64,000 nt of DNA from an uncultured Chloroflexia bacterium. GTDB taxonomy: Bacteria; Chloroflexota; Limnocylindria; Limnocylindrales; CSP1-4. The notes under the pieces were generated by a model. The model searched no databases, was not told where the DNA came from, and worked only from the letters and a program-made list of their open reading frames with translations. The stretch lies in NCBI GenBank assembly GCA_963763775.1, contig CAVXPZ010000003.1, forward strand, positions 704,001 to 768,000. The letters run 5' to 3'. The position numbers and the translations under genes are program-made. Below, piece after piece: positions 22,646 to 56,017 of the stretch; the stretch's first letter is position 1, and each line of letters begins with the position of its first letter.

Positions 22646-22647
22646 CG

Positions 22648-37733: not shown

Positions 37734-37886
37734 CAACCGACGCTACCACGTCGCCGAGCGGTTCCGGCCCCGGCCCGGAAGGGTTGGCTGGGGGTTCCGC
37801 TGCGGCTCCCCCCACGGGCCGAAGCGTGCGATCTCAGGATAGCGACCCCGCGACGTGCCGGACGCGACCCTGACTAGACTGCCGTC

Positions 37887-38123: not shown

Positions 38124-38135
38124 GCCGGCCGGCGA

Positions 38136-38432
38136 TCAGGCCTTCGGCGCCGCGCCCACGACGATGTCGTGCGTCTCTGGGTGGCGCTCCACATACGCCC
38201 TCACGTATGGGCAGGTCGCGATCACCCGCAGGCCCCGCCGACGTGCGTCGTCGAGCGCGAACACCGTGAGACGCGAGGCGACGCCCTGCCCCTGGTGGTC
38301 CGGGAGCACCTCGGTGTGCACGAGCGCGATCCGATCACGTTTCACGACATAGTCGAGGAAGCCCGCGAGTGCGCCGTCGTCGCGTGCCTCGTATCGCAGG
38401 GCGGCCTCGGCGTCGGTGATCGTCACTTCCAC
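38136..38432 (-). CDS. YjdJ-like GNAT acetyltransferase
   Basis: HTEVLPDHQGQGVAS...CPYV. Confidence 0.85.
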   Translation of the reverse strand: MEVTITDAEAALRYEARDDGALAGFLDYVVKRDRIALVHTEVLPDHQGQGVASRLTVFALDDARRRGLRVIATCPYVRAYVERHPETHDIVVGAAPKA

Positions 38433-38529: not shown

Positions 38530-40279
38530 ATGGCCATCGACACGCCGAGCGCCTCGTCCTCGTCGCGCTTCACACGGTTCGTCCCGATCCTCGAGTGGTC
38601 GCGCCGCTACGACCGTCGCTGGCTTCGCGGTGACGTGATCGCCGGTGTCGCTGTCGCCGCGATGATCGTGCCCAAGAACCTCGGCTACGCCGGTATCGCC
38701 GGGATCCCGGTGGAGAACGGCCTCTACGCCGCCGCAGCAGCCGCGATCATCTACGCCCTGTTCTGTACCTCGCGGCACATCTCGACCGGCCCGAGCTCGT
38801 CGCTGGCGGCCGTCGCCGGCGGCGCGGTCCTGGTGACCGGCTCGACCGGCAGCGACGCGGCCCAGCTCGTTGCCGCGATCGCCATCGCGACCGGCGCGCT
38901 TGTTCCTCCTCGTCGCGGTCCTGAAGCTCGGGTGGCTGGCCAGTTTCCTCTCGCGAGCCGTCGTCACGGGATTCCTCGCCGGCGCCGCCATCGACGTGGT
39001 CATCGGCGAGCTGCCCAAGATGACCGGCACGTCCTCCGACGGCGTGAATGCGTGGCAGGAGTTCGCCTCGTGGGTTCGCGGCCTCGGCGAGGTGAGCACG
39101 ACGACGCTCGCGGTGGGGCTTGTCGCGCTGGCCGTCATCCTGGGCCTGCGCTTCGCCGTCCCCAGGATCCCCGGCGCGCTCGTCCTGGTGGTCGGCGGCC
39201 TGATCGCGTCGATCGTGCTCGATCTGGGTGCGCACGGCGTGGCCCTGGTAGGGACCGTGCCACGCGGGCTGCCGGTGCCGCAGGTGCCATCGCTCGACCT
39301 GGTTTCGCAGAACCTTCCGGCCATCGTCGTCGCGTCGTTCGCGCTCCTGCTGATCGGGTTCTCCCAGACGGCGGGTGACGCGCAGGCGTTCGCGACGCGG
39401 CATCGATATCGCGTCGACTTGAACCAGGAGTCGATCGCGCAGGGGATGGCCAACCTCGGTGCCGGTGTCTTCCAGGGCATGCCGGTCTCGACCAGTCTCT
39501 CGGCGAGCTCGTTGAACGAGTCGGCTGGGGCGCGGACCCCGGTCGCCTCGCTCGCCACCGGGGCGATCGTGCTGGCTACCCTCGTGCTGCTCGCGCCGCT
39601 CTTCTCCGAGCTGCCCAAGCCGGTCCTCGCCGCGATCATCATCGATGCGGTCGTCTTCGGGATGATCGACATCGCCGAGTTCCGGCGGCTCCGCCGGGTG
39701 AAGCGATTCGACTTCTGGATCGCGGTCGCGGCGCTGCTCGGCGTGCTGTCGGTCGGCGTCCTGCTCGGCGTGGTCGTCGGGATCGTGCTGTCGCTGCTGT
39801 GGCTCATCCATGTCGCGACCCGGCCGTCGATGCCGATCCTGGGTCGGGAACACGGCACGCAGGTCTACCGCGGTCTCGACGAGCATCCTGACGACGAGAC
39901 CGACCCCGGTGTGGCCGTGGTCCGCATCGATGGCGGCCTGTTCTTCGCGACGGCGGGGGCCCTGGACGAGAGAGTCCGCGCGATCCTCGAGAGCCAGCCT
40001 GGTCTGCGGTCGCTCGTGCTCGACCTCGAGGGCGTGAACTTCGTCGACTCGCAGGGGGCGGCCAAGGTCCACGACCTCCACGAGCTCGCGGAGGCCAACG
40101 GGATCGAGCTGCGCCTGGCTCGTCTCAAGCCGGGTGTCGCCGAGGTCCTCTCGGCCGACGGCGTCCTCGACGAGGTCGGCCGGGACAAGATCCATGGCAA
40201 CGTCCACCGGGCCGTCGAGGCGGCACAGGCGGCGAATGCCCGGGGGGCGGTAGACCTTCCGGAACCGCCGGGGCGCTAG
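38530..40279 (+). CDS. SulP/SLC26 anion transporter (indel near 38900)
   Basis: DVIAGVAVAAMIVPKNLGYA, NQESIAQG, STAS FVDSQG. Confidence 0.9.
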
Positions 40280-40331
40280 CGGCGGGCGGCGGCGATCCTC
40301 GTGCGTGCCGGCCCGGACGGGCCGACGAAGA

Positions 40332-41336
40332 TCAACCCTGTTCCCCGCGGTGGCGCGTCGCAGCGAGCGCTTCCAGGTCGGCCGTGTCCAGGCCGTCGGC
40401 CGGAACGTCGGCGACCCGTGCGGCCGTCGTGGCTCGCAGTGTTGCCGTCCGGAGGCCGCCCTCGAGCGCGGCCCGCTCGCCGACCACCGCGCCGGGTCCG
40501 ATCTCGGCGACCGGCTCGCCGTCCACCTCCACGACGAAGATGCCGTCGAGGATCAGGAACACATCAGTCCCGGGCGCCCCCTGCTCGAGCAGCGTGGTGC
40601 CGGCCGGGATCGTGCGGATCCTCGGCTTCTGCCCGCCACGCATGATGCTCGCCGACAGTTGGCGCTCGAGGCTCGACTCGACGCTGGCGACGACGGCCGG
40701 CGAGTCCGAGGTGCCCCATGGCGTGCGATCGCCGAATGAGTCGTTGAACCACGTCGTGAAGTCCACCACGCCCGACTTCTCGACCAGCCGGCCGTCGTTG
40801 TCGTAGATCCAGTGGCGTGGGAACGGGCTGGCGCCAGCCAGTTCGTGGCGCGACGAGCCGTCGACATCGAGCGTCAGTGCGAGCGTCGTCCAGGCGATCG
40901 ATGGCCAGAACTGCACGAACGGCTTGTGGCGAACCGGCCGTGGCGTCGGCAGACCCATCCGCCCGCCCACCGTCTGGACGAACCGCACCGACGTCGCGGT
41001 CACGACCGGATCCGGACGGAGGTCGGGCAGGTGGACCGCCGGAAAACGGATGGCGGCCGGACCGACACGCACCGTGGTCGCGCCGATGTGCCCCTGGCCG
41101 AGATGGCCGTGCCCGACGATCCGTCCGTCCTCGACCTCGATGAACGCCCGGAGCTCGTTCGCTTCCCGGAAACGATCGGTTCGGCGCAGCTCCTCGAGGT
41201 CTTCCAGCTGGTCGGGGGGCGGCGCGTCGTAGTGGGTGACACCCATCTCGAACGGCACCTTCGAGAGGCCGGCGATCGCCTCCGAGGGGATCCAGGAGAT
41301 GGCTGTGACGGACGATTCGACTCGTGTGCGTGCCAC
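40332..41336 (-). CDS. Protein with unknown N-terminal domain and C-terminal cNMP-binding domain
   Basis: GAVVGERAALEGGLRTAT; N-terminal SWIPSEA..FREAN..FPRHWIYD. Confidence 0.8.
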   Translation of the reverse strand: MARTRVESSVTAISWIPSEAIAGLSKVPFEMGVTHYDAPPPDQLEDLEELRRTDRFREANELRAFIEVEDGRIVGHGHLGQGHIGATTVRVGPAAIRFPAVHLPDLRPDPVVTATSVRFVQTVGGRMGLPTPRPVRHKPFVQFWPSIAWTTLALTLDVDGSSRHELAGASPFPRHWIYDNDGRLVEKSGVVDFTTWFNDSFGDRTPWGTSDSPAVVASVESSLERQLSASIMRGGQKPRIRTIPAGTTLLEQGAPGTDVFLILDGIFVVEVDGEPVAEIGPGAVVGERAALEGGLRTATLRATTAARVADVPADGLDTADLEALAATRHRGEQG

Positions 41337-41430
41337 GGGACGGTCACCTCACATGGCGGCGGGGACGCCGCCTTCGGTTGCTGCCGGAGGGATCGATGAT
41401 GGCTGATGGATCCGGTGTACGTCCAGAACG

Positions 41431-42351
41431 TCAGGCGGATCCGGGCATCGGGACCGAGGCCGCAACCGGTGATTGACGCAAGATCCCGAAGAGGGCCACC
41501 AGGACGATGGCCGCGCCGACCCATTGGCGAGGATCGAGTCGCTCGCCGAGGATCAGCGCGCCTGCGGCGACCCCGACGACCGGGATGAGGTAGAAGGACA
41601 CCGCGGCGAACGATGCGGGGACGTGTCGTAGAGCGCCCAGGTAGAACCAGTAGGCGCCGGCGTAGTACAGGACGCCCGAGCCGATGGCGCTGGCCAGCCC
41701 GAGTGGCGTCAGTGCCGTCGGGACGATCGCAGCTCCGGCGAGGCCGACGACCACGACGAGCAGGATGGCGAGGACGAGCGCGTGGGCTTGCTGGGCGAGG
41801 ATGACCTGCGTCGTCTCCTTCGCGTCGGGGATCCAGCGACGGGCGACCACGGAGTAGACGGCACAGCAGACGATCCCGGCGAGCGTCAGGGCGACACCGA
41901 TCAGCTGACCGCTGCTCGACGACGGGTCATAGACGATGACGACCATGCCGGCGACCGCGACCATCGACAGGACGATGAATGCCGGCGTCATCCGCTCGCG
42001 CAGGAACCAGGCGGCGAGGAACAGGATCATCAGCGGCTCGAGGGCCCAGAGCAGGACGTACAAGCTGGCGCTGATCATGGTCAACCCGATCAGTCCCAGC
42101 GCGTAGGCAAGACCGGGGTTGAGGAGTCCGAGCCGGCCAAGCAGCGGCGAGCCCTCTGTTCGAAAGGAGATCCCCTGGCGACGCATCAGGATCGCCAGGA
42201 TCGCCAGGCTGGCGGCGAGCTGGATCGGCAGCAGGGTGAACGGCGAGATCTCGTCGAGGGCGGCCTTGCTGATGACCGTGCCAACCCCCCAGCAGGTGGC
42301 GGCGAGGATCAGCGCGGCGAGATCACGCGGGGCGACGGATGCCGTGGCCAA
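41431..42351 (-). CDS. EamA/DMT transporter
   Basis: 10 TMs; FLRERM and LGERL repeat ends. Confidence 0.85.
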   Translation of the reverse strand: MATASVAPRDLAALILAATCWGVGTVISKAALDEISPFTLLPIQLAASLAILAILMRRQGISFRTEGSPLLGRLGLLNPGLAYALGLIGLTMISASLYVLLWALEPLMILFLAAWFLRERMTPAFIVLSMVAVAGMVVIVYDPSSSSGQLIGVALTLAGIVCCAVYSVVARRWIPDAKETTQVILAQQAHALVLAILLVVVVGLAGAAIVPTALTPLGLASAIGSGVLYYAGAYWFYLGALRHVPASFAAVSFYLIPVVGVAAGALILGERLDPRQWVGAAIVLVALFGILRQSPVAASVPMPGSA

Positions 42352-42359
42352 GACGCGGT

Positions 42360-43175
42360 TCAGCAGCAGCCAGATCCGCCGCAGCAGCCGCCGACCTCGG
42401 CGACCGGGAGCATCTCGCGAGGCGCCGCGAGGTCGATCAACGGACGGGCGTCCGCGGGCTTGGTCGCCTTGATGATGGCGCTGATCATCCCTTCGACGAC
42501 CGTGTGCGACGGCGTGATCGAGATGTCAGTCAGGCCGACGGCCTCGAGCCCCCCGCGGAACTCCGAGATCGACAGCGCGCCCGCGATGCAGCCGGCGAAG
42601 GAGCCGCGCTCGGCACGCTCGTCCGGGCTGAGCGAGTCCTCGGCGACGATGTCGCTGATGCCGATCCGCCCGCCCGGTCGAAGGACCCGGGCGATCTCCG
42701 CGAAGACGGCGCGCTTGTCGGCGGCGAGATTGACCACGCAGTTGCTGATCACGACGTCGATGGATTCGGCGGGCAGGGGGATGGCTTCGATGTGGCCCTT
42801 CAGGAACTCGACATTGGTCGCGCCTGCCTCCGCGGCATTGTGCTGGGCAAGGGCGAGCATCTCGTCGGTCATATCGACGCCGAACGCCCGCCCGGTGGGG
42901 CCGACGCGCTTGGCCGACAGGAGCACATCGATGCCGCCGCCGGAGCCGAGGTCGAGGACGCGCTCGCCTGGGTGCAGGTCCGCGACCGCGGTCGGGTTGC
43001 CGCAGCCCAGCGAGGCCAGCACGGCAGCGTCGGGCAACTCGTCGCGCTCGAGCGCCGAGTAGAGGTTGGCGCCGATGGTCTCGGGGTCACTGCAACAGGA
43101 CGTGCCCTGGGAGGCGCGGACCGCGGCGTCGGCGTAGTGCTGGCGCACGGTCTCGTGGATGGTCTCGGTGGTCAT
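42360..43175 (-). CDS. arsM: Arsenite methyltransferase
   Basis: SLGCGNP, LDLGSGGGID, ISNCVVNL, GCIAGA; Cys-rich termini. Confidence 0.9.
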   Translation of the reverse strand: MTTETIHETVRQHYADAAVRASQGTSCCSDPETIGANLYSALERDELPDAAVLASLGCGNPTAVADLHPGERVLDLGSGGGIDVLLSAKRVGPTGRAFGVDMTDEMLALAQHNAAEAGATNVEFLKGHIEAIPLPAESIDVVISNCVVNLAADKRAVFAEIARVLRPGGRIGISDIVAEDSLSPDERAERGSFAGCIAGALSISEFRGGLEAVGLTDISITPSHTVVEGMISAIIKATKPADARPLIDLAAPREMLPVAEVGGCCGGSGCC

Positions 43176-43212
43176 GGCTGGATCGCTCCTGCTTCCGTCG
43201 CGGTTCGTGTGG

Positions 43213-43250
43213 TGTATTGATACTTGACGATATAGACATCTGTCAATACA
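43213..43250. promoter_or_regulatory. ArsR operator / divergent promoter
   Basis: AT-rich inverted repeat tgtattga...tcaataca between arsM and arsR. Confidence 0.65.
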
Positions 43251-43258
43251 GTGGCCGG

Positions 43259-43592
43259 GTGAAACGTCAGACCGACCCGGACGTGCGGCTCCTCCAGGCC
43301 GCGGCCGATCCGACCCGACTCGCGATCCTGCGGCAGCTCTCCGACGTCGCCGAAGTGTGTGCGTGCGACTTCACCGCGTGCTGCGACGTGAGCCAGCCGA
43401 CGGTCTCGCATCACCTCAAGGTCCTCCGGGACGCGGGCTGGATCGAGGGCGAGCGGCGCGGCACCTGGGTCTGGTACTCCATGCGACCAGCGGCGGTGGC
43501 GCGGTTCCGCGAACTCGCTGGCGGGTTCGGCCCGGTCCTCGCCCCAGCCGATCACCTCGCGCCGGCTGCCGGTCCTCGAGGCTCGCGCCTAG
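43259..43592 (+). CDS. arsR: ArsR/SmtB regulator (true end RRLPVLEARA* after an indel)
   Basis: ADPTRLAIL, EVCACDF..CC, SQPTVSHHLKVL. Confidence 0.85.
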
Positions 43593-43714
43593 GACGTCAC
43601 GGCCGAGACGACGGGTCGTTGGCCCGATCACCGATCTCAACGGTGGCTGACTACGATGGCGCGAGGCAGGACGTCGCCAAGCGTTCCGGCCGACGTCAGG
43701 ACGGGAGCACACGG

Positions 43715-44650
43715 ATGACGACCAACGTCACGCCTCGATTCCGTCGCCGGCTCGCGGCAGAGATGCCCGATGCTTTTCGCGTCTTCCGTCACTCGCTGTT
43801 CGACTACCTGCGACGCACCGGGCAAGTCGACGCCTCGGCGGACTGGACGTCTTCGGCCGCGATCGCCGAGGCCTGGGGCAGGCACTCCAGGTGGATGGAG
43901 CACCTCGCCGCGACCGCCGCGGAAGACTGGGTGGCCGAGGACGCGGATGGCAGGATCATCGGGTGGGCGCAGTCGATCGAGCGCGACGGCATGCTGGAGC
44001 TGACCATGTTCTTCGTCGATCCTGACGCGCAGACGCGAGGTGTCGGGCGAGGACTGCTCGAGCGGGTGTTCCCCCTCGGCCGAGGGCATACGCGGACCAT
44101 CTCGGCGACCCAGGATCCGCGGGCGGTGGCGCTGTATCTGCGATTCGGTGTCTCGTACCTCACGAGTTCGATCGACGTGCTCGGTCCACCGCGAGCGTCG
44201 GTGATCGAGACCGATCTTCACATCGAACGCGTCCTGCCGGGCGGCATGGCCGACGCGGAGATCGCCATCGCCGACTTCGAGCGACAGCTTCTCGGCCACG
44301 CGCGGCGCGAGGACACGCGGTTCCTTCTCGGCGAGCGTCCTGCCTGGCTGGCGCGCCGCGGAGACCGAGTGGTCGGCATGGCATTCGGCATGAACGGGGA
44401 TTGCACGGGGCCGATCGGGGCGTTGGACACAAGCGACCTTCCCGCGCTCATGGCCACCGTCGAGAACGACGCCGTCGACCGGGAGGTCAAGGAGTTGGGG
44501 TTCACGATCCCGATGGTCAACGCGACCGCTCTCGCGTACGTGCTCGGACGGGGATACCAGGTGGATACGTTCTACACGTTCATCTTGAGCAGCAGCGATC
44601 ACATGCGACTTGATCGATACATCGAGACGCAGCCGACCTTCATCTTCTGA
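43715..44650 (+). CDS. GNAT acetyltransferase
   Basis: RBS gggag; FVDPDAQTRGVGRGLL. Confidence 0.8.
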   Translation: MTTNVTPRFRRRLAAEMPDAFRVFRHSLFDYLRRTGQVDASADWTSSAAIAEAWGRHSRWMEHLAATAAEDWVAEDADGRIIGWAQSIERDGMLELTMFFVDPDAQTRGVGRGLLERVFPLGRGHTRTISATQDPRAVALYLRFGVSYLTSSIDVLGPPRASVIETDLHIERVLPGGMADAEIAIADFERQLLGHARREDTRFLLGERPAWLARRGDRVVGMAFGMNGDCTGPIGALDTSDLPALMATVENDAVDREVKELGFTIPMVNATALAYVLGRGYQVDTFYTFILSSSDHMRLDRYIETQPTFIF

Positions 44651-44876
44651 TCGATAACGTCTACGCGTGGATGGGCTCGGGGACATCGCCGGAGGCCTGG
44701 CCGGTGTCAGTCTGCTCGCCTTGGCACGTCGCAGACTCGGAGCAGGGACCACCATCGTGATGACCAGGGTCTTGCACCCAGAGGACCCGTCGGAGTCCTG
44801 AGCGCAGCTCGACCGTGGCGACGGTCTACGATGGCCGCTCCGCGTCGCCCGGCGCGGCAACACGTGGGTGGACCGG

Positions 44877-46097
44877 ATGTCGGACCAACGCCACCGCGAG
44901 TCGCGGGACGCGCTGACCGCTGAGCGTTTGGCTCGTGAGGCTGGCTCGACGCCCGACTACATCGCCCGGCTCGTCGAGGCGGGCGCCATCAGCGCCGATG
45001 TCGACGGGCGGTTCGCGATCGAGGACGTGCCTCGGGTCCGGCTGACGCTGGCCCTGGCGGACGGCGGGATCGAGTTCGACGACCTGATGTCCGTGATCCG
45101 CAGCGGAGCCCTCCAGCTCGACTGGGTCGCTCGGCTCTGGACACTGGGTGAGCCATCCGGACGGACGTTCGATGCCTTTGCCCGATCACTCGGCGAGCGG
45201 GCTGCCGACCTGCCGGCGATCTACGTTGCGCTCGGCCTGGCGCCACCCATGCCGGACACGGTCATGCGCCAGGACGAGGAGCGCGTCATCACGGACTTCC
45301 TCGAGCTTTGGGACCTGGTCGACGATCGCCCTGAGGTCTCCATTCGCGCCGCACGCATCGCCGGCGACGGGGTCCGACGGATCCAGGGCGCGACACAGGA
45401 CCTGTTCGACGAGCTTGGGGGACCTCCCGGGAACCAGGCAGCCAAGGGAATGTCTCCGGACGAGGCGATGCGGCCGGCGTTGCTTCTTGGCCCGGTCCTC
45501 GCGGAACTGATGGTCTGGCTCCAGGCGCGCCACCAGGAGAACGAGGTCTTCGCACGGATCGTGCCGTACGTCGAGGAAACCCTGATCAAGGCCGGGCATG
45601 GCGAACGTCATGGCCAGCAGCCCGCGATCGCGTTCGTCGACCTCGCGGGCTACACCGAGATGACGGTCTCCGGGGGCGATGATCACGCCGCTGAGTCTGC
45701 GACGACGCTGCAGATCCTGGCGGCATCGGCGGTCCGCAGCCACCGCGGTCGGGTCGTGAAACTGCTCGGTGACGGTGTGATGCTCCAATACGCCTCGATG
45801 GTCGATGCCATCGGCTCGGTTCGCGACCTGATGGCTTCCATCGCGGCGGCAGGCCTTCCGCCAGCGCACGCGGGCATCGCCTCAGGGCCGATGGTGGTCC
45901 GCGACGGCGACGTCTACGGACACACCGTGAACCTCGCGGCCCGGATCGCCGGCCACGCCCGCGCGGGCGAACTGCTGATCGCCGCAGATGGAGCGAACCA
46001 GCCGATCGGCGATCCTGTCGAGTTCGAGGACGCCGGGTCGGCCGCCCTCAAGGGCATCGCCGATCCCGTCCGCCTGCTGCGGGTGCTGCCCGGATGA
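44877..46097 (+). CDS. Soluble class III adenylate cyclase with regulatory N-terminus
   Basis: FVDLAGYT, VKLLGDG, DVYGHTVNLAARI. Confidence 0.85.
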   Translation: MSDQRHRESRDALTAERLAREAGSTPDYIARLVEAGAISADVDGRFAIEDVPRVRLTLALADGGIEFDDLMSVIRSGALQLDWVARLWTLGEPSGRTFDAFARSLGERAADLPAIYVALGLAPPMPDTVMRQDEERVITDFLELWDLVDDRPEVSIRAARIAGDGVRRIQGATQDLFDELGGPPGNQAAKGMSPDEAMRPALLLGPVLAELMVWLQARHQENEVFARIVPYVEETLIKAGHGERHGQQPAIAFVDLAGYTEMTVSGGDDHAAESATTLQILAASAVRSHRGRVVKLLGDGVMLQYASMVDAIGSVRDLMASIAAAGLPPAHAGIASGPMVVRDGDVYGHTVNLAARIAGHARAGELLIAADGANQPIGDPVEFEDAGSAALKGIADPVRLLRVLPG

Positions 46098-47456
46098 GTC
46101 GGGCCACGCCAGCACGACCCGAGGGTGGCGACGGTCCAGGCGCTGCGCAGCAGACGTCCGCATCGACGGATCCGCCGATCATCGAGCTCCGTACCGACCG
46201 TGGGGAGCTCCGACGCGGCTCGCTGCGGTTCGTCGACGACCGAGTCGAACGGCGCTACCAGCGCCAGGGCGGAGCGGAGAGCAAGACGGGATTCCGCATC
46301 GCCACCGCCACGGCGGCGGTCATGTGGCTCCTGGCCGCCGCCGTCATCCCGATGGGCACACCGATCCCGGCCGATCGTGCGATCCCCGTGTGTCTCGCGA
46401 TGGCGGTCTTCAACCTTGCCGGCTTCCTGTTGTCGGCCGGGGCGGACACCCTGGATCGCCAGCACTCGATCGTTTCCGTCCTGACCGCGGTCAACGGGCT
46501 GGTCATCCTCTGGCTGGCGTCGGCGGGCGGCGTCCTGCCTGGATACGGGATCAGCGCGATCATGCTGCTGTTCGTCTTCGGGTTCGTCGCTCGCACCGGT
46601 TTCATCTTTGCCGCGTCGCGAACCGCCGTCATCGCCGTCGGCTTCCTCGTGGCTGCCGTGCTCTATGCGGGCCGGAGCAGCCTCCTCGTGGACGCGTTCA
46701 TCTTCGCGGCCGCCGTGATCGGCAGTCTCCTGGCGCTGCGACTCCTCGAGCAGTCACGCCGCCGCGTCTTCTACCAGGACATCGTCATCACCCGACAGGC
46801 AGACGAGTTGAAGGTCGAGAAGGACCGGGCCGACGCGCTGCTGCTGAACGTCCTTCCGGGATCGATCTCGTCGCGCCTCCTCGCGGGCGAGCGGACGATC
46901 GCCGACGCGTATCCGGCCGTCACCGTGCTCTTCGCGGACATCGTCGGGTTCACGCCGATGACCGCGCGTCTGCCAGCCGACGACGTGGTCGGGATGCTCG
47001 GCCGACTCTTCGCTCGCTTCGACGAGCTCGTGTCCGCGCGCGGCCTCGAGAAGATCAAGACCATCGGGGATGCGTACATGGCCGCGGGCGGACTGCCCGA
47101 GCCGCTCGACGACCACGCCGCTCGCGTCGTCGATCTCGGCCTCGCGATGATCGACGCCGGCCTACGAGGAGACCAACCGGATCGCCGACCTTCGGATCCG
47201 AGTCGGCGTGCATTCAGGGCCGGTCATCGGCGGCGTCATCGGCCACCGCAAGTTCGCCTTCGACATCTGGGGCGAGACCGTGAACATCGCCAGCCGGCTG
47301 GAGTCGCACGGCATCCCTGGCCGCGTCCACGTCAGCGCCGAGACCTGGCGGATCGTGCAGGACCGGTTCGATGCGGAGCCGCGCGGCCCGATCGACCTTC
47401 GCGGCTACGGACCGATGGAGACCTACGCGATCATCGGGCGCCGGGCCGGTCCATAG
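46094..47456 (+). CDS. Membrane-bound class III adenylate cyclase (indel near 47170)
   Basis: About 6 TMs; FADIVGFT, KIKTIGDAYM, FDIWGETVNIASRLES. Confidence 0.9.
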
Positions 47457-47611
47457 GTCGTGTCGAGGAGCCGGTCGTGGCGCCCGACGCAGATCGAACC
47501 ATCGGATCTCACGCCGTCTCAATGGGGATGACCGGCGAACAGGCCTTGGGCTCGACCAGGCCGGCCGTGGTCGAGTCACGCATCGAACCGCCAAGGTCGG
47601 AGGGTCATCTC

Positions 47612-48448
47612 ATGCGCCGGATCCTAGGTACGGTCCTGGTCGCCGCGGCGGTCGCCGCCTGTACCGCGACGGGGGCCTCGCCTGGCGTCGGCTCCGGACC
47701 GCCGGTCCCATCGGTCGCGGTGACCGCACCGCCGGTCTCGGCCGGTCCGCCCCTCGACCGCTTCGCCCGCTCCATCGGTCGCGGTGACCGCACCGCCGGT
47801 CTCGCCTTCCGCCGCGATCTCGCTGTCGCTCCCCAAGACCTTCAAGTCGAAGGAGTACGGCTACACGATGGGCATGGCGGCGGACTGGACCGCGAAGGCG
47901 GCGACCCTGCTCGTCGATGACCCCAAGTCCACCGGCGACTCCGGGACCGATCTCATCACCGTCACCGGCACCGATACCACCATCCCGGTGGTCGCCTGGG
48001 ATCTCGGCCATCAGACGTTCGCCGCCTGGCTCGAGGATTACCGGGCGGCATGTCTCGGCGTCCGACGGGTGGCGGCGACTGGACCGCGAAGCGGCCACCC
48101 TGTCGTCGATGACCAAGTCACCGGCGACTCCGGGACCGAGTGCATCGCCGCACCGCGCACCGATACGACATCCGGTGGTCGCTGTCTCGGCATCCGTCCC
48201 GAGGAACGGGCGGCCATGTCATCGGGCGTGCCGGCGGGTTGCGACGGCGGTGATCCGTCACCTGGCCGCCCGTGGCGATCGGCGACCTTCAGGGGGTCTG
48301 GCAGCAGAAGTGCAACGCCGCGGTCGCGACCGTGGAGCACGGCGGCAAGGCCTACCAATTCGCCTGGGAGAACAGCACCTTCGAGGGCAGCAAGCACTTG
48401 TCGGAGACGAACTTCAAGGCCGTGCTCGCGTCCGTCAAGTTCCGGTAG
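47612..48448 (+). CDS. Hypothetical lipoprotein (indels and internal duplication)
   Basis: Lipobox AVAAC; C-terminus FKAVLASVKFR*. Confidence 0.55.
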
Positions 48449-48521
48449 GCGGCAGGGCACAGCCGACGTTCGGTACTCCTCGATCGATGCCGACGCCCAC
48501 AAGCCCGGGTGGCATCCGCGA

Positions 48522-48642
48522 CGTTCCTGGCAGTACCGGAATCCGGACAACTGAGCGTGGCCGCGCCCAGAAACGACAGGATCCTGTCGATCAGGGACTC
48601 GACCACGAGAGGCCTGTGGCAAAACCGGTACTGGCAGGAACG
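48522..48642. repeat. 18-bp inverted repeat pair (17/18 match) with 85-bp spacer
   Basis: cgttcctggcagtaccgg ... ccggtactggcaggaacg. Confidence 0.6.
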
Positions 48643-48674
48643 CGACTTCGCGGCGCCGGACTCGGGGTCTTTGT

Positions 48675-49115
48675 CTACAGCTCGCGGGCTTCCATCCGTT
48701 CTCGCAACGAGGCGAGGTCGCGCTCGAATTGGCGAGTGGCCAGCCTCGCGAACAGCGGGCCGAGCAACCGGAACCCGCCGGTCGGCGTCGCCTCGAACGT
48801 CGCCGTCACGTTGGATCCGCTGCCCTGTGGTTCGACATCGAACGACCCGGCGAACGGGAACGGTCCCGACTGTGTTTCGTAGGCCAGCCGCCGACCCGGG
48901 ACGAAGTCGGTCACGGTCGAGTCCGTCTCGATGCGCCGACCGAGGAAACGGGTCACCTCGCGCGCGGTGCTCCCGACCCCGACCGGTCCCGTCGACGTCA
49001 GGTGTCCCTCGATCGATGCCGATGCCCACTGGGCATTCTTGCTGACGTCGGCCAGCACGGCGAACACGTCGTCGGGCGCTCGCTGGATCTGGACGCTCGC
49101 GCTCCCTCGGGCCAC
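48675..49115 (-). CDS. SRPBCC family protein
   Basis: DDVFAVLADVSKNAQW, GPVGVGS, DLASLRERME. Confidence 0.85.
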   Translation of the reverse strand: MARGSASVQIQRAPDDVFAVLADVSKNAQWASASIEGHLTSTGPVGVGSTAREVTRFLGRRIETDSTVTDFVPGRRLAYETQSGPFPFAGSFDVEPQGSGSNVTATFEATPTGGFRLLGPLFARLATRQFERDLASLRERMEAREL

Positions 49116-49203
49116 GATCGGACTCCGTGTGTGCGGTCGGACGACGTTGATCGGCAGTGTCGCATGCCGTCGTCGTTCGGCGTCTCGCCGATGGGCGCGG
49201 GGC

Positions 49204-49648
49204 CTACAGCTCGCCGGCTTCCATCATGGTCTTGAGGTTCGAAAGGTCCTTCGCGAACGACCGCTTGTAGACGGCGGCGAGGAGCGGGGCCATCGGCCGC
49301 ATGACGCCAGTGGGCTCGAACGACACGAGCCAGTCGAGACGGGCTGCTGTCACCCAGGCTGATGCAGTCGATGGCGATGCGGACCTCGAACGGGAACCCA
49401 GAGATGCTGCGCATCGCGAGCCGCCTGTTCGGCTCGAATTCGGTGAGCTCCATCTCGTTCTCCGTCGTCCGTCCGCCGAATGTCGGGACGATGGCCCGCC
49501 GTCTCGTGCCGACGCCCATCGGGCCAGGAGTCGTGACCGTCTCCTCGATGGCACGGGACCACTTGGCGGCATTCTCGAGGTGGGTCAACACGGCGAAGAC
49601 GTCGTCGACCGGTCGCCTGATCGTGACGGTCAGCGCTGCCGTGCTCAT
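49204..49648 (-). CDS. SRPBCC family protein (indel near 49350)
   Basis: RPVDDVFAVLTHLENAAKW, GPMGVGT, DLSNLKTMMEAGEL. Confidence 0.8.
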
Positions 49649-49683
49649 GGCCGAAGCCTACTCGCGCGAGACTCCGGTTCGGT

Positions 49684-49745
49684 TGGGCCCGCCCGGCGGG
49701 ATCCGAGCGCGCGGTGCAAACCTCTCGGGTGGAGGGGGTCGAGGA
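49684..49745. repeat. att-like scar A: tRNA-Arg 3' end copy plus conserved arm
   Basis: tgggcccgcccggcgggatccgagcgcgcggtgcaaacctctcgggtggagggggtcgagga. Confidence 0.8.
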
Positions 49746-49829
49746 TGCGCCGTTTGCGACCGGGCGGCGCCGACGGTGGTCATCATGGTGGCCGTGGGAC
49801 GTTCTGGGCTCGAGCGGCATCTACCTGAC

Positions 49830-50378
49830 GTGAATGCCCACGAATTGGTCGACACGACGGCGACGGCCGAGCTGCTGGCTCGTGCGCGGACCGGCGAGCG
49901 CGAGGCCTTCACCGCCCTTGTCGAGCGGCATCATGCCGAACTCGTGCGCATCGCCTATGCCATCACCGGTGACGTCGACGCGGCCCGCGATGCCGCCCAG
50001 CTGGCGTGGATCAAGGCTTGGCAACAGCTGCCGAAGGTCCGCGAGCCCGAGCGCCTCCGGGCATGGCTGATCGCGATCGCGGCGAACGAAGCGCGCCAGT
50101 ACCTCCGCGCGCATCGACGGCGTCATGTGCGCGAGATCGCACCGCCGACCCTGGATGAGATGCCCGGGCACAGTGTGATCGCCTCAGCCGATCGACTCGA
50201 TCTCGCCGCCGCCCTGGTGCGTCTCGATCCGGCCGACCGCGGCCTGCTCGCGATGCGCTATCTGGCCGGCCTGACCGCGGAGGAGATCGGAACAGCGACC
50301 GGGCGATCCGCTTCGGGGGTTCGCACCCGTCTGTCTCGCCTCATCGCCCGTCTGCGTGAGGACCTTGACCATGACTGA
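49830..50378 (+). CDS. ECF RNA polymerase sigma factor
   Basis: DAARDAAQLAWIKAW, LRAWLIAIAANEAR, LTAEEIG...VRTRLSR. Confidence 0.9.
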   Translation: MNAHELVDTTATAELLARARTGEREAFTALVERHHAELVRIAYAITGDVDAARDAAQLAWIKAWQQLPKVREPERLRAWLIAIAANEARQYLRAHRRRHVREIAPPTLDEMPGHSVIASADRLDLAAALVRLDPADRGLLAMRYLAGLTAEEIGTATGRSASGVRTRLSRLIARLREDLDHD

Positions 50379-51491
50379 CCGACCGACGTTCGACCCGTTC
50401 GAGCAGCGTATCGCCGCTGAGTTCGAGCGATATGTCCAGCCGGCAGCTGATCCGACGCCGGTCTCCGCGATCGCAGGGGCCGCGATGCGACCGCGCGGTC
50501 TCGGGGTCCGTGCTCGGAACCTGTCACGGCCACGCCGCTTCCTGCTGCTCGGGATCGCCGCGGCCTTCCTCGTGCCGGCGACATACCTCGCCGCGGGCAG
50601 CCTGCGACCTCCGACTCCGGACCTGAACGACCAGGTACAGCCACTCAGCCGGATCCAGGTCGGCGATCCAGGCGGCGCCGCGCTGGTTCGCTGCCGACGA
50701 CACGTCGCTCTGGGTCCACGAGCCCACGAGCCTGGTGCGCGTGGATCTGGCGACGTCCGCCGTCACGGGAACCGTCCCCCTGAACGGGATGGAGTACGGC
50801 TATGACGACGACCGGGGCCGGTTCCGTCTGGCAGACGGACTACGAGAACGACGTCCTCGTGAGGATCGACCCGGTCAGCCGGCAAGGTCATTGCGTCGAT
50901 CCCGGTCGGATCGGCACCGGCAGGCGTCGCCGTCACCGAGGGCTCGGTGTGGGTGGCCAACGAGCACAACGGGACGGTCAAGCGCATCGATCCCGCGACC
51001 AACAAGGTCGTCGCGACGATCGCGGTCGGTCCGGCCGGATCCGCCGGCCCACAGATCATGACGGCCGGACCCGGTGGTGTCTGGGTGGACATCCAGAACA
51101 ACGGCGATCGGTGGTGCGGATCGATGCCGCGACGAACACGGTCGGGCTGCGGGTGCCGCTGGACGGCCCGGTGGCGAGCGACGGCAGAAGGTCTGGATCG
51201 GCGTCGATGCAGGGACCGAACGGACTGTCGCAGGTCGTGCGCATCGACCCGGTCTCGGGCAAGGTCATCACCACGGTCGACCTCGATACCCAGGGCATCT
51301 GCGGCCTGGCCGTCGGCCTCGGATCCGTCTGGGTCGCCGACGGCGGGTTGACGCGGATCGACGCCGCGACGGGACGCATCCTCGGGCACCTCGATACCGG
51401 TGGCGACTGCGGCAACGTCGTCGTGGCGGGTGGCGCGGTCTGGGTCACCGCGGACGGTCAGCCGTACGTGCTGCGGATCTCGCCGCCGTAA
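50371..51491 (+). CDS. Putative anti-sigma factor with extracellular YVTN/Vgb-like beta-propeller (indels)
   Basis: Overlaps the sigma stop; short N-terminus, one TM, repeated GSVWV..RIDP blades. Confidence 0.65.
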
Positions 51492-51646
51492 CCACGGTCG
51501 CCGGACGCTCCGGCCGGCAACCCGACTGGTCGCACGCCGGCGCGGAAGCCTGGCAGCGACTCCCACAGCGCGGCAGGGCCCTGGACTCAGGACGCCCTGG
51601 CCGTGACCTGACAACAAACCGACCTCGTCAAGAAGAGGAGTCCGAG

Positions 51647-52716
51647 ATGCGTCATGCCTCAGTGGTCGTGCGGGCGAGCGTCGCCGCCATGGTTGCGATC
51701 TCCGTCGGAGCCTGTGGGGCGACACCGGCGAGTCCATCGCCCCGCGAGACCGCGCCGGCGGCTTCCGCGAGCGTGTCAGCCACGAGCCTCCACGGACGTC
51801 GTGGAGTCGCCGTCGGCCTCGACGACCGCGGCTCCATCGCCGTCTCCGTCATTCCCGGCCGGGGCGACGATCGACGGCCGGATCCAGGTCGGCGACCCCG
51901 TCGCACCGCGCTGGTTCGCTGCCGACGACACGTCGCTCTGGGTCCACGAGCCCACGAGCCTGGTGCGCGTGGATCTGGCGACGTCCGCCGTCACGGGACA
52001 GTCCCGCTGAACGGATGGAGTACGGCTACGCACGACCGGCGCCGGTTCCGTCTGGCAGACGGACTACGTTGAACGACGTCCTCGTGAGGATCGACCCGGT
52101 CACGGGCAAGGTGGTCGCGTCGATCCCGGTCGGATCGGCACCGGCAGGCGTCGCCGTCACCGAGGGCTCGGTGTGGGTGGCCGACGAGCACAACGGGACG
52201 GTCCAGCGCATCGATCCCGCGACCAACAAGGTTGTCGCGACGATCCCGGTCGGGCCGATCGCACCGACTGGGCCGCAGATCATGACGGCCGGTCCCGGTG
52301 GCGTCTGGGTGGGCATCCAGCACACGGGTCGAGAACGTGCGGATCGATGCCGCGACGAACAAGGTCGGCCTGCGGGTACCGTGGGACGGCCCGGTGGCGA
52401 GCGACGGCAAGCAGGTCTGGATCGCCGTCGATGCCAGGACCGAACGGGCTGCCGGCAGGCCATCCGCATCGATCCGGACACGGGCAAGGTCATCACGACG
52501 GTCGACCTCGATACCCAGGGCATCTGCGGCCTGGCCGTCGGCCTCGGATCCGTCTGGGTCGCCACAGGCGGATTGACGCGGATCGACGAGGCGACGGGAC
52601 GCATCGTCGGGCGCCTCGATCTCAATGGCGATTGCGGCAACGTCATCGTGGCGGGTGGCGCGGTCTGGGTCACCGCGGACGGTCAGCCGTACGTGGACCG
52701 GATCTCGCCGCAGTGA
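51647..52716 (+). CDS. Beta-propeller lipoprotein, paralog of the upstream propeller (indels)
   Basis: Lipobox SVGAC; DNA nearly identical to 50648-51491. Confidence 0.65.
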
Positions 52717-52828
52717 CCACGGCTGATCGCCCGCGCCGAGGGTCAGGGCCATCGCGGTCGGTGGCAGGTACAGGGGACCTCGACCGACGCGCACCGTTTG
52801 GCGCTGGCCCTACCGGAGAGAGTTGCAG

Positions 52829-52918
52829 TGGCTACGCCCGGAGGGATCCCAGCGCGCGGTGCAAACCCTGCGCGTCGAGGGGGTCGAGGAACTTGTCGCG
52901 GTGCTGAGAGCGGCCTGA
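52829..52918. repeat. att-like scar B
   Basis: tggctacgcccggagggatcccagcgcgcggtgcaaaccctgcgcgtcgagggggtcgagga...; encodes RPEGSQRAVQTLRVEGVEELVAVLRAA*. Confidence 0.8.
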
Positions 52919-53282
52919 CCGTTGTCACGTAGAGTCGGCGGTGTGGTCGCAATAGTAGTGCGACCTACACGATCACAAGCAACGAGCTCGTGAGAGCCCG
53001 CTGGGAGCATGCCGGGTCGTGGTCGCGGTCACATGGGATCGGCTGACCGAGGTAGCCGGCCGGTACTGGGCAAGGCCCAGCCGATGGCGGTCGATAACCG
53101 ACTCCAGACGCACTCCTGGGAACGAGGACGCCGGCAACGCCTGTCGTCAGGTCGGGCCCAGGCGTCTCGGAGTCAAGGCCCTGCCACGCGGGTGTTAGCC
53201 AGACGAGCGCGTCACCACGGCCCGACTCGGGTCATCGTCGCCCCGCCTCGCTCTCGACGCGACAGGCATACAAAGTGGGCCG

Positions 53283-53549
53283 TCAAGCGGGCAGGGCCGG
53301 GCGCAGCGAGGCGAGACCCCACCAGACGACCACTAGGAGCGCGACGGCGATGGCGATCCGTGTTCGCGATGTCCCGGCCCGAGTCGCGTACCAAATCACA
53401 CAGAGCGGTGCGACCAGAACGGCCCACAGCAGAACGACAGCGTCCGGGTAGGCATGGTTGACGATGGCGAGCCCGACGACGATCCAAGCCACCACCGTCC
53501 AGACCACGATGGTCCATGTTGAGACACGCCACGCTGGGATGGATGGCAT
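53283..53549 (-). CDS. Small membrane protein (cargo)
   Basis: 88 aa with 3 hydrophobic helices; atypical codon usage. Confidence 0.55.
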   Translation of the reverse strand: MPSIPAWRVSTWTIVVWTVVAWIVVGLAIVNHAYPDAVVLLWAVLVAPLCVIWYATRAGTSRTRIAIAVALLVVVWWGLASLRPALPA

Positions 53550-53866
53550 CGGCTAGAGATTACCGCTGTGGCGTCGTCGTCACCCTGCGCCATCGCTGGC
53601 GCCGATCAGGTCGGGTAGGCGGCGGCAGACCCGTAGCACCCGGCGACCGACGCGCCGACTGGCCCCACCGCGCGCACGCCGGACCACGTTGCCCGCGGCT
53701 AACCGACACAACGTTACCGATGGAGCCGAGTGCCGTGACGCGAGACTCGGACCGTAACGTCTTGCTCTCGGGTACCCATCGCGGGCCTGCGCCACCTAGG
53801 CCACGACGTCAGGCGAGACGAACGTCTCCGACTGACCGCCTCCGCCACGTCACGCGCCCGAGAGAC

Positions 53867-53955
53867 TGGCCCGCCCGGAGGGATCTGAACGCGCGATGCA
53901 AACCCTTCGCGTGGAGGGCGTTGAGGAGCTAATGCGGGCGCTGCGGGCGGCATGA
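53867..53955. repeat. att-like scar C
   Basis: tggcccgcccggagggatctgaacgcgcgatgcaaacccttcgcgtggagggcgttgagga...; encodes ARPEGSERAMQTLRVEGVEELMRALRAA*. Confidence 0.85.
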
Positions 53956-54140
53956 GGGTGCTACCGAGACCGCGGCCGGCCTGCCGCCAGGCATGACTGA
54001 TGGCCACTGCCCCGGTCTAGCCGCGCGGCCGGCCCGCGCGCTGCCGGCAGCGTCGCGGCGCCACCTCTTGCATCGCGTCGGGCGGCACGACCAGCGCACG
54101 ACCGGTCCCGGCTCACATCGCCTTCGTCGTCGCGCCAGGC

Positions 54141-54557
54141 CTAGCGGAACCGGCGGAGGACCCGCTGTAGGACGACCCCGAGCAGGACGAGCGTTCCAAC
54201 GAACCAGATCATCCCGAGGACCGCTGCCGGGGTCCCTTGCGCATGAGTCACGTTCCCGATCACGCTGAACACCAGGAAGGTGCCGACGAATATCGGGATG
54301 GACACCAGTATCGCCATCAGCAAGAGGCCGATGCCCGCAAGCCCGACGGCGAGGTCGCCGATGTAGGACCCTGCGATCCCCCGAACAACCTTGCGCGCGT
54401 CCGGCGCTACCTCGGGCGGGGCCTCGCCGACAGGCGCGATAGTCGGGGCGACGGGGATCGTCCACGAAGGCGCCTGCCCTGATTCCGCCAACCTGGATGC
54501 GCGCAGGCGTCGCGACTCCTCCGCGATTGGATTTGGCTCAGCCTCATGGTCGTCCAC
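54141..54557 (-). CDS. Membrane protein (cargo)
   Basis: 138 aa with C-terminal TMs. Confidence 0.6.
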   Translation of the reverse strand: MDDHEAEPNPIAEESRRLRASRLAESGQAPSWTIPVAPTIAPVGEAPPEVAPDARKVVRGIAGSYIGDLAVGLAGIGLLLMAILVSIPIFVGTFLVFSVIGNVTHAQGTPAAVLGMIWFVGTLVLLGVVLQRVLRRFR

Positions 54558-54707
54558 AGCAATGTCTCATCGGCATCGTATGACATCGGCGTCTCGTCGC
54601 CCGTGCACGGATGGGTGGCGACCACGGTATAGATCTCGGGCCGGATCGCCTCGGCGCAGAGAACGACCCCAGGGGCACTCGACTTGGGTCGTGTCGTGCT
54701 CAGAAGC

Positions 54708-54768
54708 TGGTCCGCCCGGAGGGATCTGAGCCCGCGGTGCAATCCCTTCGTGTGGAAGGTGTCGCGGG
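54708..54768. repeat. att-like scar D
   Basis: tggtccgcccggagggatctgagcccgcggtgcaatcccttcgtgtggaaggtgtc; encodes VRPEGSEPAVQSLRVEGV. Confidence 0.8.
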
Positions 54769-54794
54769 TCGCCGGCTCTCGGCGTCGGCGCACA

Positions 54795-55322
54795 ATGGCC
54801 ACGATGGACCATCAGCGTGAAGTGTCGGGTCAAACGTGGGATGTCACCGTCGAAGGGTCGCCTCTCCTTGTGGAGCTAGTGCCCTACGGAGGACGGCTGT
54901 GGGGCGCGCCGAGCAGCTTCCGAATGGGCATGGTCGAACAGACCCTGTCGTGGTCACCCGGGGTGTCCCGATGGCAGCGCACCAGGGCGCCGAAGGTCGG
55001 ATCGATCAATGCAGGCGATCACCGTCTCAGGATGACCTTGAACACGATCCAGCTCTCGCACCGGGCTGCGCTGGGTCGGAATGTGTCGGGTCTCAAACGG
55101 AGTGGACCTCTATCCTTCCTCGGCACCCTTGTCGGTGGCGCAGGGCTGGGAGCCGGCGCAGCAGGAGCGTCCCAGACGACCTTGACGTGGCTGATCTACG
55201 AGCTCGACATCGACGGTGTCCCCTACGGCTCGTGGGTCGCCAAAGCCGTCGACGGCCGCCCTGAGCGGTGGACCTTCGTGCTGCCGGGCGGCGTGCTCCC
55301 CGACGGTGAGTCGCGCGACTAG
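54795..55322 (+). CDS. Hypothetical protein (cargo)
   Basis: Open frame MATMDHQREVSG...; lower GC. Confidence 0.55.
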   Translation: MATMDHQREVSGQTWDVTVEGSPLLVELVPYGGRLWGAPSSFRMGMVEQTLSWSPGVSRWQRTRAPKVGSINAGDHRLRMTLNTIQLSHRAALGRNVSGLKRSGPLSFLGTLVGGAGLGAGAAGASQTTLTWLIYELDIDGVPYGSWVAKAVDGRPERWTFVLPGGVLPDGESRD

Positions 55323-55443
55323 TAAGACCCGACAAGGACGTCGCGACGTCCAGTGCCGCAGTCGCAGCACGTAACGTGCCTTCTAGGACCGTGACCGGGG
55401 TCGGGGCCGACGACCCCAAGATTCGACCCACGTTTCAGAATCT

Positions 55444-55521
55444 TGGCCCGCCCGGAGGGAATTCGAACCCCCGACCTACTGATCCGAAGTCAGTCGCTCT
55501 GATCCACTGAGCTACGGGCGG
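55444..55521 (-). tRNA. tRNA-Arg(TCG)
   Basis: ccgcccg-tagctcagtggatcagagcg-actga-cttcgga-tcagt-aggtc-ggggg-ttcgaat(t)-ccctc-cgggcgg-g-cca; one extra base in the T-arm, probably an error. Confidence 0.92.
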
Positions 55522-55561
55522 ACGCCCGCGGATGATACCGCGTTACGCGCCGCTCGAGCCG

Positions 55562-56017
55562 TCAGGCGTAGAGGCGCGTGTCGACCGCGGCGATCTCGGC
55601 GTCGAGCAACGTCCGGCGCTGGAGCTGGCTCATCTCGTACCACGAGAGCGTGGCGCGGTTGATCTCGCTCGGGCTGACGTTGCACTGGCGGGCGATCAGG
55701 CTCGCCCGGACGGCGGCGCTGACCAGGACCGCGGCGACCCGGGCGGTGATCCCGAACGCATCGACACCATCCTGGCAGGCCGTCTTCTCGACGTCGCGCG
55801 CCCGGGCGAGGGTGTCGTCCATGAACTCGGCGCCATGATCGGACGGCAGCAGCGCGACACCCGATGCGAGCAGCTGGCGTGCGGCCTGGACGGGTGCGAT
55901 GGGGGCGCCGGACGCGTCCCGGAGCGGGATCTCACGGCCGTCGAAGCCGCGCATCGGGACACCGAGGCGCAGTCGGTCGGCGAGGAGGTGGAGATCGTCG
56001 TGGGCGTCGTGGGGCAC
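55562..56017 (-). CDS. Hypothetical protein
   Basis: RBS aagga before the GTG; host-like codon usage. Confidence 0.6.
   Translation of the reverse strand: MPHDAHDDLHLLADRLRLGVPMRGFDGREIPLRDASGAPIAPVQAARQLLASGVALLPSDHGAEFMDDTLARARDVEKTACQDGVDAFGITARVAAVLVSAAVRASLIARQCNVSPSEINRATLSWYEMSQLQRRTLLDAEIAAVDTRLYA

Follow-up and report, generated by a model that had tools for sequence, protein, structure and literature searches.

Genomic islands at tRNA genes are the textbook territory of tyrosine integrases. Here we analyse a 64,000-nucleotide stretch of DNA, referred to below as the window, from an uncultured Chloroflexia bacterium (CSP1-4, Limnocylindrales; GenBank assembly GCA_963763775.1, contig CAVXPZ010000003.1, positions 704,001 to 768,000 of the forward strand), in which four direct repeats stand in a row beside a tRNA-Arg(TCG) gene. 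We read these repeats, with a probability of about 0.7, as the far junctions of elements that were inserted at the tRNA by large serine recombinases (LSRs), accreted there and then decayed. Accretion and the formation of cis-mobilisable elements (CIMEs) have been described for integrative elements, e.g. the islands related to ICESt1/ICESt3 and the AICEs (integrative and conjugative elements of actinomycetes) of Streptomyces at tRNA-Arg (PMC5704250, PMC9513070). Such arrays resemble the present one in that successive insertions occur at one target, the attachment (att) sites form direct repeats, and older units without integration genes keep their att sites; they differ in their enzymes, which are either tyrosine integrases or serine integrases with protein-coding genes as targets. 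The array in the window, in contrast, would combine an LSR with a tRNA target, and its att repeat contains part of the recombinase's own coding sequence.

An attachment site within a recombinase gene is known from Mx8, where the attP site is part of the int gene, whose 3' end is replaced on integration with a change in activity (PMC6070905). IntP/IntX of the myxophage Mx8 and the SSV-type integrases of archaea are similar to the layout proposed here, since the site lies inside the recombinase reading frame and integration at a tRNA changes or splits the end of the protein (PMC6070905, PMC4383910, PMC7253208); unlike it, they are tyrosine recombinases, and the SSV-type enzymes are split near the N-terminus, which inactivates them, whereas the LSR here would lose only ~25 C-terminal residues. 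In their 2015 paper, the authors of Islander state that serine integrases were not known to target tRNA genes (PMC4383910). The tycheposons of Prochlorococcus are islands which grow by repeated integration at tRNAs, and 910 of 937 such elements use tyrosine recombinases (bioRxiv 10.1101/2020.12.28.424599). They share with our locus the tRNA anchor, a stacking in which newer insertions push older ones inwards, and scattered partial tRNAs and degraded integrases; they differ in that the available portion of the preprint describes no split-tail layout.

The original prediction for this locus had gone as far as an integron-like gene-capture array. With integrons the locus shares only the picture of a polarised row of short cassettes with recombination sites in between and a single anchor. 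However, no IntI-type tyrosine recombinase is present at this locus, the cassette genes lie on both strands, and the repeats, as coding remnants, would not be attC hairpin sites; the locus has neither a resident recombinase nor an orientation common to its cassettes, its repeats do not look like attC, and nothing in it points to an integron-like machine. The LSR family described here shares its Resolvase, Recombinase and Zn ribbon domains, and a short att site of ~40 bp as judged by conservation, with the large serine integrases. These include phiC31, Bxb1, A118 and SPbeta SprA, as well as CcrAB of the composite staphylococcal cassette chromosome (SCC) islands, and in SCC islands, too, the 3' end of a single gene is where cassettes are stacked, many of which lack ccr; the papers searched describe no split tail for these enzymes. 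We found no paper describing a tRNA-targeting LSR with a split tail, and serine integrases at tRNAs could be listed in the supplementary files of the tycheposon and Islander/TIGER studies; the LSR layout behind the array appears to be undescribed in print.

The genome is represented by a 3.3-Mb metagenome-assembled genome (MAG) estimated to be 87% complete. The only tRNA gene that ARAGORN finds in the window is an intact tRNA-Arg(TCG) (Rfam tRNA score 64.4 bits). Each of the four repeats joins a core, which is the antisense of the tRNA 3' end, to a common arm that encodes a tail peptide. The repeats and their target are as follows.

49685..49745, plus strand: scar 1, a core with 2 mismatches and the first ~19 tail codons (ARPAGSERAVQTSRVEGVED), the remaining tail lost; profile score 28.6 bits
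52805..52821, plus strand: an extra degenerate core-like copy with 3 mismatches, 24 nt upstream of scar 2, with no arm of its own
52829..52918, plus strand: scar 2, a degenerate core and an arm coding for the whole tail (RPEGSQRAVQTLRVEGVEELVAVLRAA), its stop codon being TGA at 52916-52918; 55.4 bits
53867..53955, plus strand: scar 3, an exact 17-nt core and an arm coding for the whole tail (ARPEGSERAMQTLRVEGVEELMRALRAA), its stop codon being TGA at 53953-53955; 56.3 bits
54708..54766, plus strand: scar 4, a core with 1 mismatch and the first ~19 tail codons (VRPEGSEPAVQSLRVEGV), the remainder diverged; 21.4 bits
55444..55521, minus strand: tRNA-Arg(TCG), the attB-like integration target and sole tRNA-Arg(TCG) of the assembly

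All four repeats (49685, 52829, 53867, 54708) are in direct orientation, the same as that of the tRNA 3' end. They had been described as such in the original prediction, which placed the first copy at 49684, and the block sizes given there, ~3.1, 1.0, 0.8 and 0.7 kb, are also correct. As a direct-repeat family (D3), they comprise 4 copies of 84 nt with 62-100% identity to the reference copy and spacings of 3145, 1037 and 841. When the window was scanned for the 17-nt antisense tRNA 3' end with up to 3 mismatches, 7 matches were obtained against 1.40 expected, a number that none of 100 shuffles reached. These matches were at 53867 (exact), 54708 (1 mismatch), 49685 (2 mismatches), 52805 (3 mismatches) and 55444, the tRNA itself; the other two, at 25944 on the minus strand and at 58929, have 3 mismatches each and are probably due to chance. 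The copy at 52829 is missing from the scan because the 5' part of its core is degenerate (TGGCTACGCCCGGAGGGA), but by alignment it is a clear member of the family. Beyond these four copies, neither blastn-short with each of them (E < 1e-3) against the whole 3.3-Mb genome nor a six-frame profile hidden Markov model (HMM) scan of the genome (matches of at least 12 bits) returned any further repeat. Since there are four copies only, all at one locus, the repeat is not a dispersed REP-like element.

A reading of the repeats as tRNA-like pseudogenes was discarded, as Rfam at E up to 5 gave only the real tRNA in 47000-56000. In its T-loop (window 55459-55462), the tRNA-Arg(TCG) reads TTCGAATT, as against TTCGAAT in all 12 relatives compared, and thus has one base more; this base coincides exactly with the end of the identity between tRNA and scar, and an error of the assembly, a genuine mutation or a mark left by faulty recombination could each account for it. 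Directly after scar 2 lies a hairpin, GGTCGCA-atagtag-TGCGACC (window 52940-52975), and for the neighbouring 52962-53136 five relatives have short stretches that are 70-78% similar.

Translated on the plus strand, the arm yields one peptide in 4 of 4 copies, xARPEGSERAVQTLRVEGVEELxxxLRAA, which is followed by a stop in copies 2 and 3, while copies 1 and 4 encode only its first ~19 residues. Over 23 codons, 11.5 synonymous and 6.5 non-synonymous changes separate copy 2 from copy 3 (proportions of differing synonymous and non-synonymous sites pS 0.59 and pN 0.13), among them an AGA/CGG arginine pair; averaged over all pairs of 14 arms, pS is 0.52 and pN 0.23. By this excess of synonymous change, the arm is coding sequence. 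A profile of the tail peptide found it in 15 of the 131 genomes of the genus, the present one counted, and the two weakest of these 15 matches are probably spurious. The copies of relatives begin with NTGG and the antisense end of a tRNA-Arg gene, and variation with a period of three is seen in 16 further copies. Synonymous positions are more conserved at the start of the repeat (mean majority fraction 0.85 over the first 33 nt) than beyond (0.60), which points to a DNA site of the recombinase-binding type, ~38-40 nt long, followed by plain coding sequence. This initial segment of the arm would fit a recombinase binding site of ~40 bp, and it is kept as a ~38-nt synonymously conserved segment by all four scars, including copies 1 and 4 which lack the end of the tail. 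The arms nearest to copies 2 and 3 are found in other genomes (77-78% identity, against 74% to each other; 69 positions compared), which hints that the arms may have been acquired independently. 'Open frames' of 305-558 aa were rejected as high-GC artefacts, as the GC content by codon position is not coding-like.

In order to identify the protein to which the tail belongs, a profile of the 30-aa peptide was run against 1.84 billion representative proteins (E up to 1e-3). It matched 146 protein clusters, nearly always at the very C-terminus and mostly in short open reading frames (ORFs) of 29-120 aa; the two top-listed clusters, P0001 and P0014, are long repetitive proteins and were left out of closer reading. 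Among the matches is P0137, a 555-aa LSR with Resolvase, Recombinase and Zn_ribbon_recom domains, and the match lies at the C-terminus in P0137, P0178 and P0199. P0137 was taken together with its 58 closest relatives (50-66% identical), whose source names are Chloroflexota or Limnocylindrales. In 10 members of this set the protein ends in the conserved tail, e.g. ...ARVWMARPEGSERAMQTLRVEGVKELVRALVAA, and in at least 35 it ends in ...ARPEGFEPPT[LVY] or ...APPDGLEPPTQALGRPRSIH, which is the tRNA read backwards. The simplest reading of this alternation between tail and tRNA-antisense peptide is that attP lies inside the LSR gene. By pattern count, the sequence upstream of the peptide is recombinase-derived in 11 of the 146 clusters and unrelated in 89, and 10 clusters start exactly at the motif. 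The catalytic-type serine of the LSR family is invariant (S24, alignment A6) and lies within an R-E-S-T motif. In the AlphaFold2 model of P0178 (mean pLDDT 79) the tail residues 543-573 are of low confidence and include a short helix at 563-572.

A tyrosine integrase with attP in its 3' end was considered as an alternative owner of the tail and dismissed, since no long tyrosine-integrase ORF holds the peptide and PF00589 lies far from the tRNA locus in six genomes. In viral contigs, 15 pattern matches to the tail peptide were obtained, none of which was confirmed. A second tail family (...ARPEGSGRALATYRIPIEGRDEWIAAARA...) stands behind a tRNA-end core in G068, G069 and G114 (loci L028, L029 and L030), and probably belongs to a different recombinase lineage.

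The genomes of relatives contain the junctions that such an LSR would be expected to leave. In one genome of the same genus (G072), a full scar is followed by a cyclase gene, a second arm without core, a cargo of a LuxR-type regulator and a glyoxalase, and an LSR ORF with Resolvase, Recombinase and Zn-ribbon domains, which ends ...ARVWMARPEGFEPPTY* inside the antisense tRNA-Arg(TCG) at the contig end; this LSR lacks ~58 N-terminal positions of the family profile. At the junction in G005, only the last ~55 LSR residues are left, beside a core. A scan of representative genomes for the LSR family gave 13 loci, all in Chloroflexota MAGs, and in 6 of the 13 the 3' end of the LSR gene overlaps a tRNA-Arg gene, TCG in L056, L057, L058 and L064 and CCT in L059 and L061. 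Distal scars were found 7.3 kb upstream in L064 and 8.8 kb upstream in L065. L065 also encodes a pSAM2-type RepSA (PF20199, E 2e-131), and L057 has an HTH_17 gene beside the recombinase, from which the complete elements would be small, replicative, AICE-like units. With the pSAM2-type AICEs these elements have in common RepSA (L065), the Xis-like HTH_17 gene (L057), a small size of ~7-9 kb and the tRNA target, whereas their hosts are Chloroflexota and those of the AICEs are Actinomycetota. pSAM2 itself uses a tyrosine integrase.

At the tRNA-Arg(TCG) gene itself, G012 provides an empty site, in which 90 bp separate the tRNA from the end of a cyclase homologue (84% identical) and no scar is present; by this comparison the island in our genome extends from 47458 to 55443, about 8 kb. 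In six further relatives (G127, G066, G042, G130, G005 and G114) a scar lies 1.4-8.4 kb from tRNA-Arg(TCG) in the same orientation, each with a different cargo, and no tyrosine integrase was found near these scars. Represented in these cargoes are a propeller protein, glycosyltransferases, hydrogenase-related genes, and an ABC transporter for sugars accompanied by a LacI-type regulator. Comparing cargo and order at this tRNA across relatives, as had been suggested, thus revealed variable cargo and not the same genes in the same order. The cassettes of the window were not found at the tRNA-Arg(TCG) site of 40 relatives. Two further observations concern the tRNA genes of these loci. At 10780-10960 of both L060 and L065, the tRNA-Arg into which the recombinase reads is truncated to its 3' half and is no whole gene, and L039 (G114:C29) carries two copies of tRNA-Arg(TCG), at 1131-1207 and 16942-17018, 15.7 kb apart with a scar in between.

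That no integrase lies in the window had been pointed out before and is confirmed here, and a search for an intact recombinase elsewhere in the assembly was also empty. PF00239 and PF07508 had 0 matches in the genome, the LSR-family profile reached at least 15 bits nowhere in it, and the 6 matches to PF00589 were all on another contig (C1) and none at the locus. Likewise, tblastn with 12 proteins from the elements of relatives, searching for an element backbone, returned from the genome nothing but paralogues of a single cargo protein, located at other places on the contig, and no homologues of RepSA or HTH_17 were found in the assembly. Four stacked, att-flanked units without a recombinase, RepSA or HTH_17 homologue have the layout of a CIME or accretion array. 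As the assembly yielded no serine recombinase gene, the array most likely represents a fossil, a product of accretion followed by decay. Four public sequencing runs contained only short contigs of relatives, none of them spanning a scar in an informative way; the best run had 0.10 of the sampled words, and the runs are silent on circles and habitat.

What has been shown, namely the anatomy of the repeats, the coding nature of the arm, its identity with LSR C-termini, the LSR-tRNA junctions and distal scars in relatives, and the empty site, can be brought together in one scheme. A small integrative element, encoding in its circular form an LSR that ends ...ARPEGxERAxQTLxVEGVEELxxALRAA, would insert into the 3' end of tRNA-Arg by means of this enzyme, the attachment site lying ~25-28 codons before the end of the LSR gene. 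Insertion would fuse most of the LSR gene to the antisense tRNA, giving it the new end ...ARPEGFEPPT*, and the last ~25 codons would stay at the distal junction (attR type) next to a copy of the tRNA 3' end. Every new insertion would push the earlier elements outwards, and with subsequent loss of the recombinase and backbone genes, remnants without a recombinase and with 1-3 ordinary genes each would be left behind. Four detached tails would then imply at least four successive insertions at one tRNA. Several independent insertions are the best reading of the scars, because the arms have diverged under coding constraint and it is in other genomes that their closest relatives are found. What we infer from this layout is the chemistry of recombination, how many insertions there were and in which order, and that the backbone disappeared by deletion and had not been absent from the start. 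The earlier view of the repeats as att-type junction scars of repeated site-specific insertion, tied to the tRNA locus, agrees with the scheme and with the empty site in G012. Of the two routes proposed at that time, loss of element cores and capture of tiny circles in trans, the LSR decay stages seen in relatives (G072 and G005) favour the former.

Several observations weigh against this account. Random deletions should often leave fragments of the LSR gene to the left of the three internal scars, but none of these scars has such a remnant, and the recombinase gene by itself exceeds the 0.7-1.0 kb of the cassettes. Going by its position, scar 4 should be the youngest, although its decay is further advanced than that of scar 3, and the outer 2.2 kb of the island (47458-49684) carry no scar. 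Arms of 81 nt give weak phylogenetic resolution. Recombination by the LSR family is presumed, with the crossover placed solely from where the tRNA identity ends, in the T-loop. Finally, as the MAG is 87% complete, a recombinase could sit in the missing part.

The lack of LSR remnants at the three internal junctions and the small size of the cassettes would be expected if the cassettes had instead been captured in trans. Here, small circles consisting of a ~40-bp site and cargo, with no recombinase of their own, would have been inserted at the tRNA by the LSR of a co-resident or passing element, and the locus would be an integron-like collector driven by a serine recombinase. The excess of unrelated over LSR-like upstream sequence among the peptide-bearing clusters (89 against 11 of 146) is in keeping with this, as is the ~38-nt segment kept by all four scars, even by those that have lost the rest of the tail (copies 1 and 4). 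However, this retention is partly an ascertainment effect, because the scars were identified through the conserved segment. No mini-element with copies of its own, no resident LSR and no circle was found, the public runs being uninformative on circles. The gene of cassette 4 has homologues in 3 of the 130 other genomes of the genus, with no scar or tRNA within 1.5 kb, and that of cassette 3, with a single weak homologue among the same 130, is essentially unique; no homologue of either gene stands beside a scar in the 131 genomes. Moreover, the decay stages of LSRs in relatives explain recombinase-less cassettes without a new mechanism, and we regard capture in trans as unlikely, though worth keeping in mind. 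A related idea is that the scars are still live: having retained the ~40-bp LSR site, they might allow an incoming element to excise and re-insert any number of older cassettes, the exchange of tail and tRNA end acting as a built-in switch for the direction of the enzyme, of the kind reported for the Mx8 tyrosine integrase. The tRNA-Arg would then be a gene-capture platform for serine recombinases, a speculation which, on our analysis, is rather doubtful.

The remaining explanations do without repeated insertion. The tail could be a small gene in its own right, a protein of ~29 residues (MARPEG...LRAA) with its own function that merely overlaps tRNA-like sequence; purifying selection is indeed evident, 10 of the 146 clusters begin exactly at the motif with a start codon, and in relatives an ATG or GTG opens several of the copies directly at the tRNA end. 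But full-length LSRs have this very sequence, in frame, as their C-terminus, and in 11 clusters LSR-derived residues stand directly upstream. In the window the would-be start is CTG (copies 3 and 4), TGG (copy 2) or TGG preceded by GGT (copy 1), the base before TGG is whatever follows the tRNA, and copies 1 and 4 no longer encode the last third of the peptide, all of which make an independent gene improbable. Scarcely better placed, and if anything a shade worse, is the copying of one scar within the locus by unequal crossing-over or segmental duplication, followed by drift. It would account for the tandem orientation of the copies at one locus, where cassette 1 itself holds a 1.22-kb tandem duplication; against it, the DNA between the copies is unrelated, their nearest arms lie in other genomes, and differences at 59% of synonymous as against 13% of non-synonymous sites between copies 2 and 3 are those of a translated, selected gene and not of non-coding drift. 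As for a dispersed repeat of the repetitive extragenic palindrome (REP) or miniature inverted-repeat transposable element (MITE) type that resembles the tRNA end by chance, only the repetition itself speaks for it, and with four copies in 3.3 Mb at one locus, and those of relatives 1.4-8.4 kb from tRNA-Arg(TCG) in the same orientation, its probability is next to nil.

With accretion and decay as the preferred reading, the array itself is an ordinary outcome of these processes and no new machine, and the ~8 kb beside the tRNA are shown to be accreted foreign DNA. The broader interest lies in a family of LSRs from soil Chloroflexota that would target tRNA-Arg genes through an attachment site inside each member's own coding end. 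Their detached tails are protein-profile markers of old insertions in MAGs, which can be used long after the recombinase has been lost. It would also be worthwhile for tool builders to test natural LSRs whose tRNA targets are defined and whose C-terminus depends on the state of insertion.

The contents of the island and its left border, from left to right, are given below.

46112..47457, plus strand: adenylate/guanylate-cyclase gene, ancestral left flank, with a homologue in G012
47458..49684: outer part of the island, without recognisable scar and absent from the empty site of G012
48675-49115 and 48998-49648, minus strand: two SRPBCC/polyketide-cyclase-like ORFs in the outer part (Pfam)
49746..52828: cassette 1, an extracytoplasmic function (ECF) sigma factor and a propeller-like module
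49830 (GTG) to 50378, in frame, plus strand: ECF sigma factor of cassette 1 (Pfam)
50356-50805, plus strand: ORF of cassette 1 with no Pfam match
50802-51491 and 52015-52716, plus strand: propeller-like ORFs of cassette 1 (Pfam)
52919..53866: cassette 2, with an 88-aa ORF at 53283-53549 on the minus strand, three hydrophobic segments and no Pfam match
53956..54707: cassette 3, with a 138-aa ORF at 54141-54557 on the minus strand and hydrophobic segments
54767..55443: cassette 4, with a hypothetical ORF of ~175 aa at ~54795-55322 on the plus strand

The gene content first proposed for the cassettes thus holds for the ECF sigma factor, the propeller-like ORFs, the two small membrane proteins and the hypothetical protein; the anti-sigma factor assigned to 50356-50805 is unconfirmed, as this ORF has no Pfam match. 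The two propeller-like ORFs of cassette 1 result from an internal tandem duplication of ~1.22 kb (50675-51497 against 51903-52722), whose halves are 90-99% identical; in one metagenome contig, which comes from a relative, 50621 is connected to 51877.

A sequence that looks like the antisense 3' end of a tRNA (TGGCG..CCCGAC...ATCGAACC) is present at 47478-47500, 24 nt after the stop codon of the cyclase gene and at the outer edge of the island. It is not counted as a scar, having no significant match to the tRNAs of the genome or to Rfam, and it may be a chance occurrence or a very old scar. Further outwards, the ~30 kb to the left of the tRNA (window 18885-47457) are patchy in comparison with the corresponding loci of G012 (L038) and G072 (L032). 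G012 lacks window 25765-38154, with 2.3 kb in its place, and also lacks 40232-46112, while the scar of G072 abuts a homologue of window 21331-23209. The entire left flank may therefore be an old flexible region.

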